From IMG/VR virus record IMGVR_UViG_3300045988_127339, positions 1 through 43,168 of that record: a DNA stretch of 43,168 nt. One strand, given 5' to 3'. The stretch comes from a virus. Below the pieces are notes generated by a model. It made no database searches. It was given only the letters and a program-made list of their open reading frames with translations, and was not told the DNA's origin. Every line of letters starts with the position of its first letter. The first letter of the stretch is position 1. The position numbers and the translations under genes were made by a program. This document shows, piece by piece, positions 17,754 through 26,868 of this stretch.

Positions 17754-17813
17754 TTCATAACGCTTTTTCCGTAGACTCTCTGGTATAATCGCCAGAGAGT
17801 CTATTTTTGTTTG
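17752..17813 (+). terminator. Degenerate copy 3 of the promoter-like motif overlapping a perfect 12-bp hairpin terminator
   Basis: It reads AATTCATAACG-N21-TATAAT. TAGACTCTCTGG (17772-17783) and CCAGAGAGTCTA (17792-17803) form a stem that encloses the TATAAT in its loop, followed by TTTTTGTTTG. Confidence 0.6.
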
Positions 17814-17828
17814 CCCGGGAGGTATGGC

Positions 17829-19094
17829 ATGGACAGCGCAAAGCACCAGATCGAGTATAAGCGGCTGGACGAGATACGGCCCTACGACAACAATCCCCGG
17901 CGCAACGACGAGGCCGCAAAGGCAGTGGCCAACAGCATCCGGGAGTTCGGCTTCCAGTCCCCCATCATTGTGGACAGGGACGGCGTCATTATCGCCGGAC
18001 ACACCCGGTACAAGGCCGCCCGGAGGCTCAAGCTCCAGACCGTGCCGGTCATCGTGGCCGCAGAGCTGACGCCCGAGCAGGTCAAGGCCCTGCGCATCGC
18101 GGACAACTCCACCGGCGAAGTGGCCGAGTGGGACTTGCAGCTTCTGGTGCAGGAGCTGACCGGCATCGACTACGACATGGCCGACTTCGGTCTGAATCTT
18201 GAGATCAGGGTGGACGAAGAGGTCAAAGAGGACGACTTCGACGCTGAGCCGCCCGAGAAGCCCATCACCCAACGGGGAGACATCTGGCTGCTGGGCGACC
18301 ACCGGGTCATGTGCGGCGACAGCACCAGCCCGCAGGATGTGGAGCGGCTCATGGACGGCCAGCTGGCTGACCTGCTGCTCACCGACCCGCCCTACAACGT
18401 CAACTACGAGGGCAGCAACGGCAAGAAGATCGAGAACGACAACATGGCAGAGAGCGAGTTCCGGCAGTTCCTGCTCAAGGCATACAGCCGGGCCTTCGAC
18501 GCCTGCCGCACCGGGGCCAGCGCGTATATCTTCCACGCCGACACCGAAGGCGAGGCCTTCCGGGCCATGTTCCGGGAGGCTGGCTGGGGGCTGCATGGTT
18601 GCCTCGTCTGGGTCAAGAACAGCCTTGTGCTGGGCCGCAGCGACTACCAATGGCAGCACGAACCCTGCCTGTACGGCTGGAAGCCCGGGGCCAACCACTA
18701 CTTCATCAACGACCGCAGCCAGACCACCGTCATCGACGACGCGAAGCCAGACGACCTGCGGCACATGAAGAAGGACCAACTGCTGGACTGGGCCATCAAG
18801 GCGCAGGCCCTGCTCACCCAGACGCCCAGCAGCGTCCTCCGCTGCGATAAGCCGCCCCGCAACGCAGAGCACCCCACCATGAAGCCGGTGGTGCTCTGCG
18901 GCAGGCTCATCAAGAACAGCTCGAAGCCCGGCCAGACCGTGCTGGACCTGTTCGGCGGCAGCGGCTCCACCCTCATCGCCTGCGAGCAGCTGAGCCGGAG
19001 GTGCTGCACGATGGAGTACGACCCGAGGTATGTGGACGTCATCGTGAAACGGTGGGAGGACTTCACCGGCGAAAAGGCGATCCGCCTCAAATAA
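17829..19094 (+). CDS. ParB-N (sulfiredoxin-like) domain fused to an N6A/N4C DNA methyltransferase (DPPY)
   Basis: The N-terminus is IRPYDNNPRRNDE...IIVDRDGVIIAGHTRYKAA. The methyltransferase motifs are LLLTDPPYNV and, at the C-terminus, VLDLFGGSGSTLIACE. The ATG at 17829 follows a GGGAGG RBS. No cognate restriction enzyme is present in the window. Confidence 0.85.
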   Translation: MDSAKHQIEYKRLDEIRPYDNNPRRNDEAAKAVANSIREFGFQSPIIVDRDGVIIAGHTRYKAARRLKLQTVPVIVAAELTPEQVKALRIADNSTGEVAEWDLQLLVQELTGIDYDMADFGLNLEIRVDEEVKEDDFDAEPPEKPITQRGDIWLLGDHRVMCGDSTSPQDVERLMDGQLADLLLTDPPYNVNYEGSNGKKIENDNMAESEFRQFLLKAYSRAFDACRTGASAYIFHADTEGEAFRAMFREAGWGLHGCLVWVKNSLVLGRSDYQWQHEPCLYGWKPGANHYFINDRSQTTVIDDAKPDDLRHMKKDQLLDWAIKAQALLTQTPSSVLRCDKPPRNAEHPTMKPVVLCGRLIKNSSKPGQTVLDLFGGSGSTLIACEQLSRRCCTMEYDPRYVDVIVKRWEDFTGEKAIRLK

Positions 19095-20869: not shown

Positions 20870-22392
20870 TAAACCACGCCGACATCGAGAACATCATCGG
20901 CTGCAAAACACTGGTCACCGACCGGATGCAGCAGGCCATCGAAGGGTGGTATGACGCTGCCATCAACGGTCTACCCCTCAGCCGCGACCCGGAGACCCTC
21001 TCTCTGGGCCTGCCTGCGGTCATCTGCAGTGAGCTGGCCCGGCTGACCACGCTGGAGCTGGACGCCAAGGTGGAGGGCAGTCCCCGGGCAGACTGGGTGA
21101 ACGCCCAGCTGCAGCGGGTGCTGGCTCCCCGCAGACGGCGGAAATTCGCCCTCGCGCTGGCGCTGGGTAGCGGCATCTGGAAACCCTACCAGAGCGGCAA
21201 AAGCATGGGCGTCGGCTTCAGCAATGCGAGCCAGTATTTCCCGGTGGCCCACGATGTCAACAGCTGTCTGACCGAGGGCGTGTTTGTGGACACCTTGCAG
21301 GACGGCGGCGAATGCTACCACCGCATCGAATGGCTCCATCTCCTCGAGAGCAGGGCCGACCTGCGGGACGCGGAGCTGGCCCTTTTGGAGGACTACGACC
21401 TCGACCCGCCGGGGCAGTTTCCCTGTGTGCAGGTCATCAATCTGGCGTTTCGCAGTGCTACACGAAGCTCGCTGGGCAGCCCGGAAGACCTGAGCATCCG
21501 CCCCGAGTGGGATGAGCTGCAGCCAGTGGCATGGCTCACCGGGCTGGACAAGCTGCCTCTGGGCTACTTCGTAACGCCCATCGTCAACAACATCGATCCC
21601 GACAGTGAGCTTGGAGCCGCCATGTTCGAGTCCGCCCGGCAGCAGATCATCGACGCAGACGAGCAGTATACCCGGCTGGACTGGGAGTACGAGGGCGGCG
21701 AGCTGGCCGTGGACACCGCAGGCAGCTATCTCAAACCCTCCGGCGTCGGGCAACAGCTCTCCCGCGCCGAGGCGCTGCGCCAGTATGGCGTCCCGCCCGA
21801 GGCCATCGACAGCACCGCGCCCCATCACCGGGAACGGCTGTTCCACGGTCTTGATGTCAACACCGGCATCCTCCAGAGCACCCCCTTCTATCAGGTCTTC
21901 TCCCCCGCCCTGCGGGACGGCAGCTACCTCGCCGGTCTGAACCAGTATCTCCGCAATGTGGAGAGCCACGCGGGTCTGAGCTTCGGCGTCCTCTCGCAGG
22001 TGGCCGACGTGGAAAAGACCGCCACCGAGATCGTCAGCAGCAAGCAGAAGCTCTACGCCACCGTGTCCGACCTTCAGGCAGCGCTGGAGGACGCTCTGCG
22101 GGGCCTCGTCGAGGCGCTGGACTACTGGGCCGACCATATCCCCGACGCCCCGAGGCGGGGCAAGCTGAGCGTCTCCTTCAAGTGGGACGACAGCATCATC
22201 CTCGATCGGCTTTCCGAGATGGCCCAGTGGCAGCAGGAAGTCACGATGGGTCTGCGGGGCAAAGCCGAGTACCGTCAGCACTTCTACGGCGAGGACGAGC
22301 AGACGGCCCGGGCGGCCATTGAAGCCATCCAGCACGAGAACGGCGGCGATGACATTCTGAAAGGAGTCCTGAGCAATGGCAGTGAACACTAA
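20866..22392 (+). CDS. Portal protein
   Basis: The 508-aa ORF lies immediately after terL and its start overlaps the terL stop (ATGA). Its size and position are typical of SPP1/A118-like portals. Confidence 0.75.
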   Translation: MINHADIENIIGCKTLVTDRMQQAIEGWYDAAINGLPLSRDPETLSLGLPAVICSELARLTTLELDAKVEGSPRADWVNAQLQRVLAPRRRRKFALALALGSGIWKPYQSGKSMGVGFSNASQYFPVAHDVNSCLTEGVFVDTLQDGGECYHRIEWLHLLESRADLRDAELALLEDYDLDPPGQFPCVQVINLAFRSATRSSLGSPEDLSIRPEWDELQPVAWLTGLDKLPLGYFVTPIVNNIDPDSELGAAMFESARQQIIDADEQYTRLDWEYEGGELAVDTAGSYLKPSGVGQQLSRAEALRQYGVPPEAIDSTAPHHRERLFHGLDVNTGILQSTPFYQVFSPALRDGSYLAGLNQYLRNVESHAGLSFGVLSQVADVEKTATEIVSSKQKLYATVSDLQAALEDALRGLVEALDYWADHIPDAPRRGKLSVSFKWDDSIILDRLSEMAQWQQEVTMGLRGKAEYRQHFYGEDEQTARAAIEAIQHENGGDDILKGVLSNGSEH

Positions 22393-22564
22393 AAAGGCCC
22401 GGATGGAGCAAGCCGCAGCCCGTCTGGACCATCTGGCAGGCAACGCCAGCGTTCTCCGCTCTCCGGAGCTGTGGGAGCGGTATCATGAAGCCGTAAAGAT
22501 CACCGAGCTGCTGGGCTTCCATGTCACCCAGAGCGGTGGACGCCATACGGTGACGCCATGCTGA
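22376..22564 (+). CDS. Hypothetical small protein
   Basis: The 62-aa ORF has an AAAGGAG RBS and is coupled to both flanking genes. Confidence 0.5.
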   Translation: MAVNTKKARMEQAAARLDHLAGNASVLRSPELWERYHEAVKITELLGFHVTQSGGRHTVTPC

Positions 22565-23766
22565 CGCCGAAGCAGGTAGACCGCTACACCGGCCTGCTGG
22601 CCGCACCATGGGACGAGCTGGGTGAGCGCATCCTCCGGGACATGGTGCGCCGCATCCTCAAGGCAGGGCGGGTCACAGACACTGCCCGGTGGCAGATGCT
22701 CCGTGCGGAGGCACTGGGTGCAAGCCGGGCCTATCTCATCCAGCAGATGAACGCCATCGTGCAGCAGATCAGCCCCAAGGAGGCCGTTCTGTTTGCCCGG
22801 GCGATGCAGGAGGCCTACGACATCGACGGGAAGGACGCAGCCGCAGCGGGCCGTGCATTGCCCCCTCTGGGCGAGAGCGAGGAGGCGCAGCAGATCGTGC
22901 GCAGCGGCTACCGCCGCACCCTGAACACCCTCTACAATCTCACCCAGACCCGGGCGGTCATGGGCAACGACAACATGGTGGAGACCACCCAGCGCCAGCT
23001 GGCCTATTACCTCGACATGGCCCACTCTGACGCCGTTAGCGGGGCGTTCAGCTCCGACGACGCGGCCCGCCGTGCCCTCAACGAGCTGGCGTCCAAGGGC
23101 GTCGGGGCCATCACCTACCCCAGCGGCCATGTGGATACGCTGGATGTGGTGGTGCTGCGGGCCTGCCGCACAGGGGTCAATCAGACCGCAGGAGAGATCA
23201 CCCGGTACAACGCCGACGCCCTCGACTGCGACCTGATGGAGCTGGACGCCCACGTGGGCGCTCGCACCGGCGACGGCGGGCAGGACCTGACCAACCACAG
23301 CTGGTGGCAGGGTCAGATCGTCAGCCGGAGTGGGAAGCACGGCTACCTCTCGCTGGCCGACATCGGCTACGGCGACGTCCGGGGCTTCATGGGGGCCAAC
23401 TGCTCCCACAACTGGTCGATGTACTGGGAGGGGGCGAGCGTGCGCAGCTACACCCCCGAACGGCTGGCGAGGATCAATGCCGCCACCGTCTCCTACAACG
23501 GCAAAGACATCGGGAGGTACGCGGCCACCCAGATGCAGCGTGCACAGGAGCGCCGCATCCGGGCCGAGAAACGGGCCTTTCTTGTTGCCCGGGAAAGCGG
23601 CCAGCATGATATGGAAAAGGCCGCAGCGGACAAGCTGGCCGCCTCTCGTGCGAAGCTGAAGGACTTCTGCCATCAGACCGGTCTCCATTCCTACCAGCTG
23701 CGGGAATCTGTCCCCGGCTTTGGGCGGAGCGAGGCCGCAAGCGCAGCGGCGCAGGCGAGGAAATAA
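22558..23766 (+). CDS. Minor head / head-morphogenesis protein (SPP1 gp7 / minor capsid protein 2-like)
   Basis: The 402-aa ORF follows the portal gene. It contains HVGARTGDGGQDLTNHSWWQGQ and GANCSHNW motifs that resemble the MuF/gp7 family. Confidence 0.65.
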   Translation: MLTPKQVDRYTGLLAAPWDELGERILRDMVRRILKAGRVTDTARWQMLRAEALGASRAYLIQQMNAIVQQISPKEAVLFARAMQEAYDIDGKDAAAAGRALPPLGESEEAQQIVRSGYRRTLNTLYNLTQTRAVMGNDNMVETTQRQLAYYLDMAHSDAVSGAFSSDDAARRALNELASKGVGAITYPSGHVDTLDVVVLRACRTGVNQTAGEITRYNADALDCDLMELDAHVGARTGDGGQDLTNHSWWQGQIVSRSGKHGYLSLADIGYGDVRGFMGANCSHNWSMYWEGASVRSYTPERLARINAATVSYNGKDIGRYAATQMQRAQERRIRAEKRAFLVARESGQHDMEKAAADKLAASRAKLKDFCHQTGLHSYQLRESVPGFGRSEAASAAAQARK

Positions 23767-24413: not shown

Positions 24414-24450
24414 AAAAGCCCTGAAGGAATGCACCTTCAGGGCTTTTCTT
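24414..24450. terminator. Bidirectional hairpin terminator
   Basis: AAAAGCCCTGAAGG-AATGCA-CCTTCAGGGCTTTT forms a 13-14 bp stem with A/T tracts on both sides. It lies between the convergent lipoprotein gene and the minus-strand operon. Confidence 0.8.
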
Positions 24451-24461
24451 ATTGGGGTAAT

Positions 24462-24740
24462 TCACTTGAAGCGACCCAGCAGTTCATCCACGAAGTCCAT
24501 CGCCTCCTGCGTGGACGGCAGTGTGCACCACCCCCGGTCGTAATAGGCTGCTTCCTGCCAGTACCGGACCTCCCCGGGAGGCAGTTCAGCGATCCAGAGC
24601 TTCGAGACCCTCCCGCCATTGATGCCACACGCGCTGCCCTCGGGGTAGACCTTGGCCTCCCACCGGAACACGTGCCCGTTCCGCTCGGTCTGGCCCTCGT
24701 GCCAGAACTGACCGCCCATCTCCGCGCGGAACCCACGCAT
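24462..24740 (-). CDS. Small protein P5 of the minus-strand operon (hypothetical, 92 aa)
   Basis: It has a GGGAGGTGA RBS and a TGATG overlap with the upstream gene. It contains VFRWEAKVYPEGSACGINGGRVSKLWI...YDRGW. Confidence 0.65.
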   Translation of the reverse strand: MRGFRAEMGGQFWHEGQTERNGHVFRWEAKVYPEGSACGINGGRVSKLWIAELPPGEVRYWQEAAYYDRGWCTLPSTQEAMDFVDELLGRFK

Positions 24741-25006
24741 CACTGATCACCTCCCTCATAGTCCACCACGTAGCCGTTATACTCGAAGGTCACAGCCGCC
24801 AGCGCGGCCTGTGCAAGTCGAGTTGCGAACAGAATAGCATCCTCCGGAGGCTTCGTCCCAAAAGACTCCCACTGGACACCCATCTTCACCGGAGTACCCT
24901 GCCGGGTAAAGTTGCAGTTGTGGATTTGGATGCCTCCATCCTCCGAAAACTGCGCCTGCAACGCATCCAGCGCCGCACCGTACACCCTCACATTGACCTT
25001 CTTCAT
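24740..25006 (-). CDS. Small protein P4 (hypothetical, 88 aa; paralogue of P3)
   Basis: It starts MKKVN after a GAGGAGGG RBS. It shares about one third of its residues with P3 (MKKVN, ALxxLQAxF, VKxGVxW, PE, FA, YNGY). Confidence 0.65.
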   Translation of the reverse strand: MKKVNVRVYGAALDALQAQFSEDGGIQIHNCNFTRQGTPVKMGVQWESFGTKPPEDAILFATRLAQAALAAVTFEYNGYVVDYEGGDQ

Positions 25007-25278
25007 CATGCACCCTCCTCTTCATCAACGACCCGGTACCCATTGTACACGAAGCTCTCTGCCACATCGGCGGCCAGCTGCATCCAGCGTGCAAACCGGA
25101 GAGTCTCCTCCGGGGTCATGTCGTCCCGGTGGGTCCAGCTCACACCCAGCTTCACCTCCGGACGGCCCAGCAAAACGGAGTTCCCCGTCTCGCAGATCTT
25201 CACCCCGCAACCCGCGGGGAATCCCGCCTGCAAGACCTCCAGCGCCGTGCGGTACTCGCTGTAGTTGACTTTCTTCAT
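25006..25278 (-). CDS. Small protein P3 (hypothetical, 90 aa; paralogue of P4)
   Basis: It starts MKKVN after an AAAGGAGAG RBS and is in tandem with P4. Confidence 0.65.
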   Translation of the reverse strand: MKKVNYSEYRTALEVLQAGFPAGCGVKICETGNSVLLGRPEVKLGVSWTHRDDMTPEETLRFARWMQLAADVAESFVYNGYRVVDEEEGA

Positions 25279-25280
25279 CG

Positions 25281-25511
25281 TTACCACTCTCCTTTCTCAG
25301 CGGCCTCACGGATTGCCCGTTCTTCCTTCTCCTCGTCGTAGGCCGCTGCAAACATCTTCAGCGCACCAGCCCGGGTAACAGGCCCGAACTCCTTCACATA
25401 GTAGGCGAACACCCGCTCGTCCCAACACTCGACGTACCCATCGCCGCCCTCGTTGTATTTTGTCTTGGCCAGCGCGATGAACTCCTCGTAGGTCAGATTC
25501 TTCTTTGCCAT
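25281..25511 (-). CDS. Small protein P2 (hypothetical, 76 aa)
   Basis: It has a GAAGGAGGA RBS and an acidic helical C-terminus (DEEKEERAIREAAEKGEW). Confidence 0.65.
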   Translation of the reverse strand: MAKKNLTYEEFIALAKTKYNEGGDGYVECWDERVFAYYVKEFGPVTRAGALKMFAAAYDEEKEERAIREAAEKGEW

Positions 25512-25514
25512 GAT

Positions 25515-25658
25515 TCAGTCCTCCTTCACCAAAATCAGCATCTTGATCACGCGGTTCCACTGCTCCTGCGTGAGGCGGCCTCCGTTATTCACAACAGCCT
25601 GCGCGGCAGCGATTTCCTGCTGCATCTCGGCCTTGCTCATCTCGTTCAGGTTCTTCAT
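25515..25658 (-). CDS. Small protein P1 (hypothetical, 47 aa; not in the ORF track)
   Basis: My own translation gives MKNLNEMSKAEMQQEIAAAQAVVNNGGRLTQEQWNRVIKMLILVKED. A GGAG lies about 10 nt upstream and the stop lies 3 nt before the P2 start. Confidence 0.5.
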   Translation of the reverse strand: MKNLNEMSKAEMQQEIAAAQAVVNNGGRLTQEQWNRVIKMLILVKED

Positions 25659-25708
25659 TTTTCGTTTATCTCCGTTGCTTTTTACTCCGGAACCCTTCCG
25701 GTGGCTGT

Positions 25709-25737
25709 ATGTTACCTCTGCGCAAAGACAAAGTCAA
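25709..25737 (-). promoter_or_regulatory. Promoter of the minus-strand operon, TTGACT-17-TAACAT
   Basis: On the minus strand the -35 is at 25737-25732 and the -10 at 25714-25709, with a 17-nt spacer. The 5'UTR carries a CCGGAA-GGG-TTCCGG hairpin. Confidence 0.55.
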
Positions 25738-25773
25738 GTTGTTTTTGATTTATTATTTAATTTCTTTTTGTTG

Positions 25774-25802
25774 TTGACTTTTGCCCCGGCAAGTCATATC
25801 CT
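25774..25802 (+). promoter_or_regulatory. Divergent promoter TTGACT-17-TATCCT with the palindrome TTGCC-CC-GGCAA in the spacer
   Basis: The hexamers are at 25774-25779 and 25797-25802 and the palindrome at 25781-25792. It lies upstream of the HTH gene. Confidence 0.5.
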
Positions 25803-25826
25803 TGTGACAGAAAGGAGTGACCCGAG

Positions 25827-26051
25827 ATGCCCACATCCAGCCGTGTAAAGGCTCTTCTGGAGCTGACCGAGACCGACCAAAACACCTTCGCCGCAGCCTT
25901 TGGCATGACCACCCCGCAGGCCATGAACAACAAGCTGCGCCGGGATAGCTGGTCAGCAAAAGACCTCGCCCGGGTAGCCGCGATCTGCGGCGCAAAGCTG
26001 GCGTTCATCCTCCCGGATGGCAGCCAGCTCATCCTTGCACCCGAAGAATAA
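25827..26051 (+). CDS. Small XRE/Cro-type HTH regulator (74 aa)
   Basis: It contains LTETDQNTFAAAFGMTTPQAMNNKLRRDSWSAKDL (HTH) and has a GAAAGGAG RBS. Confidence 0.75.
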   Translation: MPTSSRVKALLELTETDQNTFAAAFGMTTPQAMNNKLRRDSWSAKDLARVAAICGAKLAFILPDGSQLILAPEE

Positions 26052-26065
26052 CAGCTACACCCGCA

Positions 26066-26111
26066 AAAGCCCGCCTCAGGGAGAAGCGATTCTCTCATGG
26101 GGCGGGCTTTT
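26066..26111 (+). terminator. Hairpin terminator after the HTH gene
   Basis: AAAGCCCGCC (26066-26075) pairs with GGCGGGCTTT (26101-26110). The loop holds an inner hairpin, GAGAA-GCGA-TTCTC, and a T-tract follows. Confidence 0.7.
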
Positions 26112-26150: not shown

Positions 26151-26250
26151 AGCAGACAGAATACACCGCGCACCCGGTGTCAGAGAGGTGCAGGGGCATC
26201 ACGCACGGCAGCGTGTCAGAAACCGCCGTAAGCCCCCACAGGAGGAACAG

Positions 26251-26868
26251 ATGAGACGAGAGGACCTGAGAGCCATCGAGGGCATGACCGAGGAACAGGT
26301 AGAGGCCGTCATGCGGCTGCACGGACAGGACGAAGCGGCCCACAACGCCACGGTGCAGGGGCTGCAGGCGCAGCTGGCCAATGTGCAGCAGAGCCTCGCC
26401 GCCTTTGATGGCGTAGACGTCAACGACCTGCGCAGCCAGATCACCAGCCTCACCACCCAGATGCAGACGCAGGCGGCAGAGTACGCCTTCAACGACGTGC
26501 TCCGCAGCGCGGCCCGGGAGGCTGGTGCGCTGGACGAAGCGGACGTGATCGCTCTGCTGCCGGACAAGACGGTGCTGCAGGCCAGCAAGAACCAGACCGA
26601 GGACGTCAAGGCCGCCTTTGCAGCTCTCAAGACCCACAAGCCCTATCTGTTCGCCGTATCCCCCGCCCCCGAGGGCGGACAGCCGCAGCAGGGCGCGGCG
26701 GAGACAAACCCCATCGTCATCCCCAAGCCCCGTGCGCAGGGCGGCAGCGCACAACCTACACTGGCCGAGTTTCTGAACATGACCGGCGCGGAACGCATGG
26801 CGCTGCGCACCCGGAACCCGGCTCTCTTCCAGCAGCTCTCGGCACAGCTCCGGGCTGCACGATACTAA
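26251..26868 (+). CDS. Scaffolding protein
   Basis: The product is coiled-coil and Gln-rich (LQAQLANVQQSLAAF...). The gene lies directly upstream of the major capsid gene and has a GGAGGAA RBS at its 26251 start. Confidence 0.7.
   Translation: MRREDLRAIEGMTEEQVEAVMRLHGQDEAAHNATVQGLQAQLANVQQSLAAFDGVDVNDLRSQITSLTTQMQTQAAEYAFNDVLRSAAREAGALDEADVIALLPDKTVLQASKNQTEDVKAAFAALKTHKPYLFAVSPAPEGGQPQQGAAETNPIVIPKPRAQGGSAQPTLAEFLNMTGAERMALRTRNPALFQQLSAQLRAARY

Follow-up and report, generated by a model that had tools for sequence, protein, structure and literature searches.

A separately controlled, mosaic cassette of small genes in a Faecalibacterium prophage as a candidate counter-defence island

In Mu-like Pseudomonas phages, anti-CRISPR (acr) genes sit beside the head-morphogenesis gene (CRISPR: short palindromic repeats, clustered and regularly interspaced). 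This position is mirrored by the locus described here, a cassette of five small minus-strand genes (P1 to P5) faced by a divergent gene for a 74-aa candidate regulator, in the viral genome IMGVR_UViG_3300045988_127339 (IMG/VR record, positions 1 to 43,168; the whole stretch of 43,168 nucleotides is called the window below). For the anti-CRISPR-associated (Aca) regulators, bidirectional regulation has been documented at the Aca11 and Aca13 loci, and so has the control of neighbouring anti-defence operons (PMC12282945, PMC13551039); a divergent layout such as the one found in the window is therefore not unprecedented. The anti-CRISPR protein AcrIC5 blocks DNA binding by the type I-C Cascade (PMC7913775; bioRxiv 10.1101/2025.06.06.658234), and orthologues of it, which are active as inhibitors of diverged systems of type I-C, occur in Firmicutes (PMC7913775). 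CRISPR-Cas systems of type I-C or I-E are carried by Faecalibacterium prausnitzii (PMC12716062), a species of the genus to which we assign the host of the window phage.

Using the regulator as anchor, we collected more than 120 loci, in all of which it adjoins a variable cassette; it forms the conserved anchor of the module. The census of the cargo was based on the 92 complete related loci, defined as those spanning Phage_min_cap2 to the regulator. These contain 47 distinct cassette architectures of three to eight genes, built from about 16 small-protein families, and the content differs among phages whose head genes are 82-100% identical. P2 is the only cargo gene found in every locus, P3/P4 occur in at least 82 and P5 in 73 of them, f9 is present in 73 and f11 in 63, and the remaining families are sporadic. 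The most variable position is slot 1, directly behind the conserved leader, which is occupied by P1, f29, f41, f42, f44, f60 or others. The 170-bp control region upstream of it is near-invariant across the 92 loci, and in 39 distinct related intergenic sequences the cassette promoter stays almost unchanged while the gene behind it changes.

In five of the 92 loci (L009, L039/L070, L100 and others), slot 1 holds a gene of the AcrIC5 family behind the same conserved promoter and leader. The encoded protein has 51 aa and a net charge of -12, and it matches both PF22147 (E = 1.6e-15, 57 bits versus a cut-off of 27) and the AcrIC5 structure 7YHR in the PDB (E = 1.5e-6). In other gut phages, AcrIC5 homologues lie beside other small regulators at prophage ends. 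Since a swappable, separately controlled cassette starts with a known anti-CRISPR gene in sister phages, the cassette of the window is most likely a counter-immunity island. We accordingly favour, with a little better than even confidence, the reading that the block serves a temperate Faecalibacterium siphophage as an accessory counter-defence island, controlled by an Aca-like regulator of its own.

A feature of acr-aca loci is that, across mobile elements, the regulator is conserved and the cargo behind it variable, and the 47 architectures are accompanied here by changes of place. When the cassette was looked for in related prophages, as the first-pass annotation had proposed, it was found at the same hotspot and also elsewhere. 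The cultured Faecalibacterium phage Roos (L067, PP479939.1, 4578-6249) carries the same regulator-plus-cassette module between its lysis genes and the integrase; opposite its regulator homologue (35% identity, E = 3e-7) stand four cassette genes, among them one that is f9-like and one for a DUF7678 protein with 44% identity to P5. In L059, the module is placed after the lysis genes. The regulator homologue of Streptococcus phage Javan630 has an unrelated resistance-gene context and was uninformative, and GenBank phage DNA searched with the cassette region gave no match. Regarding Roos itself, orf41 is annotated with 142 aa, of which only the C-terminal part of about 70 aa matches the regulator family, and its start is probably at an internal methionine. 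With orf40-orf37 it makes up a module of this kind, adjoining the integrase and the reverse transcriptase of a diversity-generating retroelement; the module is not discussed in the paper describing Roos.

More distant modules, with regulators only 47-59% identical, retain the back-to-back promoters. They have the cargo families f9, f11 and f33 in common with the window lineage and add Amidoligase_2 (E = 4e-61), GGACT and LPD18 (E = 9e-24), and the L059 module, whose regulator is 44% identical, carries DUF3846. All four are domains typical of the polyvalent conflict proteins of phages and plasmids (PMC5512222). The Amidoligase_2 gene is found in the distant cassettes L137-L140 and L155, upstream of the regulator homologue, and is followed in L137-L140 by a GGACT gene, which is gamma-glutamyl cyclotransferase-like; Clostridium phage NatCom_42228 (L068), too, has a gene of the GGACT type close to its DUF7678 gene. 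From these recurrences, Amidoligase_2 and GGACT may be an enzymatic anti-defence or modification pair.

The anatomy of the unit agrees well with what had first been read from the letters (Table 1). The five coupled minus-strand ORFs (open reading frames) were recovered, P4 with one residue more than first given unless its second methionine is the start. They are preceded by GGAG-type ribosome-binding sites, annotated before as GGAGG-type, and are joined by stop/start overlaps (ATGA for P3/P4, TGATG for P4/P5) or separated by 2-3 nt. Both of the proposed divergent promoters were found, with 36 nt between their two -35 boxes, in a control region (25659-25826) that includes two TTGACTTT boxes and contains three promoter-like sites versus 0.8 expected. 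The strong hairpins said to insulate the unit are present as well: the bidirectional terminator folds with -24.9 kcal/mol on the plus strand (z = -5.0) and -27.2 kcal/mol on the minus strand (z = -6.6), and the one behind the regulator gene with -35 kcal/mol (z = -6.6). The exact sequences of all six proteins are called as genes on tens to hundreds of public contigs. The ratio of nonsynonymous to synonymous substitution rates (dN/dS) against relatives is 0.15 for P1, 0.24 for P2, 0.26 for P4, 0.27 for P5 and 0.18 for the regulator, similar to that of the neighbouring capsid gene (0.14); for P3 it is about 0, from few comparisons. Because of these public gene calls and of ratios close to the capsid value, the cassette ORFs and the regulator are real genes, and, as judged from dN/dS, all five cassette ORFs are under purifying selection.

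Table 1. Coordinates of the cassette, its control elements and flanking or distal genes in the window.
Feature	Position	Strand or location	Details
Integrase	79-1395	minus	
CI-type repressor with S24 peptidase domain	1635-2480	minus	
Phage_min_cap2 (minor capsid)	22558-23766	plus	E = 1e-79; one cassette flank
Lipoprotein gene, 179 aa	23860-24399	plus	signal peptide, lipobox LTAC; own terminator
Bidirectional intrinsic terminator	24414-24447	both	ends cassette (minus) and lipoprotein gene (plus); terminator scan, folding
P5, 92 aa	24462-24740	minus	DUF7678; last cassette gene
P4, 89 aa (88 from second Met)	24740-25009	minus	YNGY family, P3 paralogue
P3, 90 aa	25006-25278	minus	YNGY family, second copy
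P2, 76 aa	25281-25511	minus	acidic; motif GGDGYVECWD
P1, 47 aa	25515-25658	minus	first cassette gene; slot 1, hypervariable
Cassette promoter TTGACT-17-TAACAT	25709-25737	minus	promoter scan
Regulator promoter TTGACT-17-TATCCT	25774-25802	plus	back to back with cassette promoter
Palindrome TTGCC-CC-GGCAA	25781-25792	in spacer of regulator promoter	candidate autoregulatory operator
Candidate regulator, 74 aa	25827-26051	plus	divergent from cassette
Intrinsic terminator 3' of regulator gene	26065-26111	plus	separates unit from scaffold gene
Phage_scaffold	26188-26868	plus	E = 5e-23; other cassette flank

The placement between the head-morphogenesis and scaffold genes, which both flanking profile matches bear out, could also mean that P1-P5 are accessory virion or assembly proteins, such as decoration proteins, head-completion proteins or chaperones, encoded on the opposite strand. 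We consider this extremely improbable. The orientation, the separate promoter and the flanking terminators speak against it, as does the variation of the content among phages with nearly the same head genes, and P5 and P2 have homologues that lie outside structural modules. Furthermore, no virion, decoration or assembly family was found for P1-P5 in Pfam and PHROGs or by Foldseek with the P3 and P5 models (P5 also against BFVD); the refuting outcome named by the first-pass annotation did not occur.

All seven proteins of the hotspot, that is the five cassette proteins, the regulator and the neighbouring lipoprotein, were scanned against Pfam, PHROGs, NCBIfam and PADLOC. P1-P4 had no match in these collections. 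P5 is a member of the Pfam family DUF7678 (PF24726; E = 2e-18, 66.6 bits versus a cut-off of 27, profile positions 2-71 of 72) and of phrog_4709, both of them uncharacterised families. PADLOC returned no defence-system match for any of the seven at E up to 1. The five cassette proteins are soluble, with isoelectric points (pI) of 4.9-6.2 and zero membrane segments. Sequence and profile searches of the PDB with P1, P2, P3/P4, P5 and the regulator yielded nothing meaningful. AlphaFold2 modelled P5 with a mean predicted local distance difference test score (pLDDT) of 84 and P3, as a beta-alpha-beta-beta-alpha-beta fold, with 72; neither model had a significant match among PDB folds, the best being generic ferredoxin-like domains at E = 0.1 or worse (0.11 for P3). 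A search of BFVD with the P5 model gave a sole match, the uncharacterised Gp67 of Bacillus phage G (template-modelling score 0.71). Word-indexed homologue searches reached close relatives only, and searches of GenBank phage proteins found just three relatives of DUF7678 and none of P2 or P4.

P3 and P4 had been described as tandem paralogues, and they are: the two are 44% identical (E = 3e-17) and have VKxGVxW and YNGY in common. Only the window lineage and a few relatives have this duplication. When the P3/P4 (YNGY) profile was run in a full HMMER search, 139 representative clusters were recovered among 1.84 billion proteins; most are stand-alone proteins, 80-95 aa long, that bear the signature LGVNW-x-A-x-GT ... 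F-x-YNGY. This family is not in Pfam and has no relative in the PDB by sequence or profile search. Tests for fusions revealed no Pfam partner, except in one case: P0194, a protein of 161 aa from the representative search, is a YNGY member fused to an N-terminal HTH_3 domain. Its architecture recalls AcrIIA1, which combines a regulator and an inhibitor domain.

The small coupled genes beside a gene for a putative helix-turn-helix (HTH) protein might also form a toxin-antitoxin-like or addiction module with this protein as transcriptional antitoxin, and the first-pass annotation had called such a module equally possible. A genuine HicA/HicB toxin-antitoxin pair does occupy the adjacent slot in two sister loci, where it replaces the lipoprotein gene (L011, 1663-2304, and L057). 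For the five genes themselves the idea is unsupported and, in our view, very unlikely: no toxin or antitoxin family was matched by P1-P5 in Pfam, NCBIfam or PADLOC, the cassettes have five to eight genes instead of two or three, and their genes are gained and lost independently, with a freedom that a co-dependent pair could not tolerate. HicAB, where found, is an extra, separate unit.

In other temperate phages, P2 homologues with 56-63% identity belong to the early genes and lie directly downstream of the CI/Cro switch; those of P5 include the DUF7678 gene of NatCom_42228, which is located upstream of terS, with a gene for a gamma-glutamyl cyclotransferase nearby. In about half of the sister loci (e.g. 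L012, L030, L033), P2 has 142 aa and carries a 66-aa N-terminal extension without Pfam match, so that the P2 domain exists both alone and as a fusion. With P2 relatives heading early operons, the cassette could be a set of early host-takeover genes that act on transcription, replication or metabolism and have nothing to do with immunity, AcrIC5 being an occasional passenger. The steady presence of P2, P3/P4 and P5, as for a core function, and the missing link of fold or family to defence inhibition are in line with this explanation. Nevertheless we judge it quite unlikely, as the genes are freely gained and lost: P5 is absent from 19 of the 92 loci, P3/P4 are absent from some, and f9, f11 and f33 are optional. 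Moreover, most related phage types lack the module, which moves from one hotspot to another. Such gain, loss and movement is the behaviour of a dispensable accessory element.

Several results weigh against the counter-defence reading. It argues from guilt by association, with a known Acr in only five of 92 loci. In the window itself, P1-P5 matched no known anti-defence family among the Acr and anti-defence models of Pfam, PHROGs, NCBIfam and the PDB; none of them, P1 included, had an AcrIC5 match in Pfam at E up to 1, and tblastn with the sister-locus AcrIC5 detected no AcrIC5-like ORF anywhere in the window. The near-constancy of P2, P3/P4 and P5 fits a shared conserved function as well as an arms race, and the lipoprotein gene or HicAB pair in the same hotspot are typical lysogen-expressed morons. 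The regulator reached no Pfam HTH model (no hit at E up to 1; HTH_3-type not matched), and a search of every PDB chain with its family profile (E up to 10) did not find a solved Aca protein; the published structures of Aca1, Aca2 and Aca10 were presumably present in the set searched. Finally, conservation of the regulator-promoter palindrome is imperfect, with arm mutations and full replacements being common, and among the 39 distinct intergenic sequences the cassette promoter of the window lineage showed no conserved inverted repeat. Of the Acr/Aca-like layout claimed at first, the AcrIC5 gene in slot 1 of sister loci, the mosaic cargo and the mobility of the module speak for the claim, whereas the lack of an anti-defence family in the window, the divergent regulator and the absence of a solved-Aca match speak against it.

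The regulator had been annotated as an XRE-type HTH protein. The divergent 74-aa gene is there; its class is less certain, since no Pfam model applies and the assignment comes from weak hits. These are matches to PHROG repressor families (E = 4e-4 to 1e-3), an hhalign match to a DUF739 protein (E = 4e-4, probability 34%) and a sub-threshold match of its profile to helices 1-3 of the 434 repressor in the PDB (E = 0.067). From these similarities, the protein is probably a Cro/CI-like HTH regulator of a family without a Pfam model.

As to the control region, the palindrome TTGCC-NN-GGCAA is present in the regulator promoter as described, but a role as operator is not convincing: 67 of 116 related loci have the two arms intact, about 20 have a mutation in one arm, and in about 20 more the element is replaced. 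The free variation of its central dinucleotide lends mild support to a constraint on the arms. Within the window lineage, the cassette promoter also varies in its spacer, and in distant modules an inverted repeat, AGTACA-N9-TGTACT, overlaps this promoter. For the window cassette mRNA, the hairpin in the 5' untranslated region (UTR) is not significant (z = -1.1). In L145-L154, L053, L054 and L059, a hairpin GTAAGG...CCTTAC directly follows the predicted transcription start and precedes the ribosome-binding site. This hairpin shows almost no covariation, with one compensatory pair, and recalls recently reported Aca-bound 5' UTR motifs.

The window is the complete genome of a temperate siphovirus-type phage with 62% G+C. 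An identical copy is contained, as an integrated prophage, in a 185-kb metagenomic contig. Close relatives are found in Faecalibacterium metagenome-assembled genomes, and among GenBank phages the nearest, FP_Lugh, shows only 34.5% identity in the minor capsid protein; on these grounds, we assign the phage to an uncultured lineage of Faecalibacterium prophages. A Bro-N/ANT antirepressor is encoded among its lysogeny and early genes, and the replication genes (DUF2800 nuclease, PolA, VapE, SNF2) are followed by a ParB-fused DNA methyltransferase. The late genes, for terminase, SPP1-type portal, Phage_min_cap2, scaffold, major head protein, tail and lysis, are all on the plus strand.

Two exact copies of a CI-operator-like repeat, GTTTACGAANGTG, are found in the immunity region. 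The pattern GTTTACGAA[T/C]GTG occurs at 2516-2528 and 2548-2560, exact in both cases, with a degenerate third copy near 2580, between the gene of the CI-like repressor and a small Cro-like ORF starting near 2678; in the window as a whole there are five matches at up to two mismatches versus 1.1 expected. These repeats are probably CI operators. No operators are shared between the CI/Cro region and the control region of the cassette, which have only the ribosome-binding site in common. Because CI-operator-like repeats are lacking there, the unit is probably independent of the lysis-lysogeny switch.

This independence would also suit a cluster of lysogen-expressed morons whose tasks are superinfection exclusion, a defence against other phages encoded by the prophage, or an influence on host physiology, and which do not inhibit immunity. 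The unit has autonomous promoters and terminators within a late operon, one that stays silent during lysogeny, and the window phage is indeed an integrated prophage. Its neighbours in the hotspot, too, are classic lysogenic-conversion cargo. The 179-aa lipoprotein, which had weak matches to lipoprotein models of NCBIfam, is a candidate superinfection-exclusion factor; its gene is a neighbouring moron outside the cassette, and since either this gene or HicAB is present, the site collects several kinds of accessory genes. For the cassette itself, we regard the moron explanation as unlikely. None of its proteins is membrane-bound or secreted, whereas most exclusion proteins act at the envelope, and PADLOC matches to defence are entirely missing. 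The AcrIC5-family gene in slot 1 of sister loci, the P2 homologues in early lytic operons of other phages and the polyvalent-protein domains tied to invading elements in the distant modules also point away from it and towards a counter-defence island.

If the cassette is such an island, its small, soluble and mostly acidic products would act as stoichiometric inhibitors of host immunity, with CRISPR-Cas of type I-C or I-E, and perhaps other systems, as their targets. The cassette promoter, probably free of the phage CI switch, would fire upon DNA entry and could keep a low level of activity in the lysogen, and the regulator would then damp the two promoters in the manner of Aca proteins. Cargo would be swapped by recombination between the genes and at the conserved promoter and leader, and this would provide each lineage with a set matched to the defences of its host. 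Going one step further, we propose tentatively, and at somewhat less than even confidence, that the 74-aa protein founds a new Aca-type family in phages of Faecalibacterium and related Oscillospiraceae, where it controls a plug-in cassette, and that one or more of P1-P5 inhibit type I-C or I-E CRISPR-Cas or other defences. The candidate inhibitor families under this joint proposal, and with the same reserve, would be YNGY, GGDGYVECWD and DUF7678, with folds absent from the PDB. The regulator would then lead to about 16 or more new inhibitor families in a major gut commensal.

Faecalibacterium is among the most abundant, health-associated gut bacteria and has few cultured phages. We found no report of anti-defence genes in Faecalibacterium phages in the literature. 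If the proposal is true, the regulator is a search handle, a guilt-by-association anchor, for counter-defence genes across the phages of Oscillospiraceae, and the census supplies a shortlist of about 16 small-protein families, three of them near-universal in the lineage, as possible inhibitors of type I-C/I-E or other systems. The module would be testable in the cultured phage Roos, and the Aca concept would be extended to a divergent layout, a new regulator family and Gram-positive anaerobes.

Two further genes of the window lie outside the hotspot. ParB_N is fused to an N6/N4 DNA methyltransferase in an ORF just upstream of the terminase genes (17811-19094, plus strand) that is kept in all sister loci; it resembles an orphan methylase and could shield the phage from restriction. 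A 62-aa ORF (22376-22564, plus strand) connects the portal gene's end with the beginning of the gene for the minor capsid protein and is called as a gene in all sister contigs. An Rfam scan of the window found no RNA family, elements resembling CRISPR repeats included.

How, then, does the locus compare with known systems? Like the prophage morons, among them lambda-type morons and Ltp-type lipoproteins, the cassette is an autonomous promoter-terminator unit in a late operon, and the neighbouring lipoprotein fits this group. It differs from them in its predicted products, which are acidic proteins of the cytoplasm and have relatives encoded in early lytic operons, and in the Acr that sister loci carry. 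With the polyvalent-protein sets (Iyer et al. 2017, PMC5512222) it is connected through its distant modules, which carry LPD18, DUF3846, Amidoligase_2 and GGACT together with f9/f11/f33; in these modules, however, the domains are separate small genes and not parts of one giant polypeptide, and P1-P5 match no named LPD domain. AcrIC5 (PF22147; PDB 7YHR) is represented by the acidic 51-aa member in slot 1 of sister loci, whereas the protein in slot 1 of the window, P1 (47 aa, pI 6.2), has no similarity to it.

The closest likeness is to the acr-aca loci. There, as here, a conserved small regulator stands beside strongly promoted, exchanging genes for small, mostly acidic proteins of unknown fold, in a phage hotspot; moreover, sister loci of the window cassette have an AcrIC5-family member. 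The cassette departs from these loci in its length of five to eight genes, in the absence of a known Acr within the window and in the lack of a conserved inverted repeat in the cassette promoter of the window lineage; its regulator gene is divergent, with its own promoter, and does not stand at the end of the operon, and the protein matches none of the solved Aca proteins. As far as the comparison of sequences can tell, what would be new here are the protein families and the candidate regulator family, within the known acr-aca or anti-defence kind.

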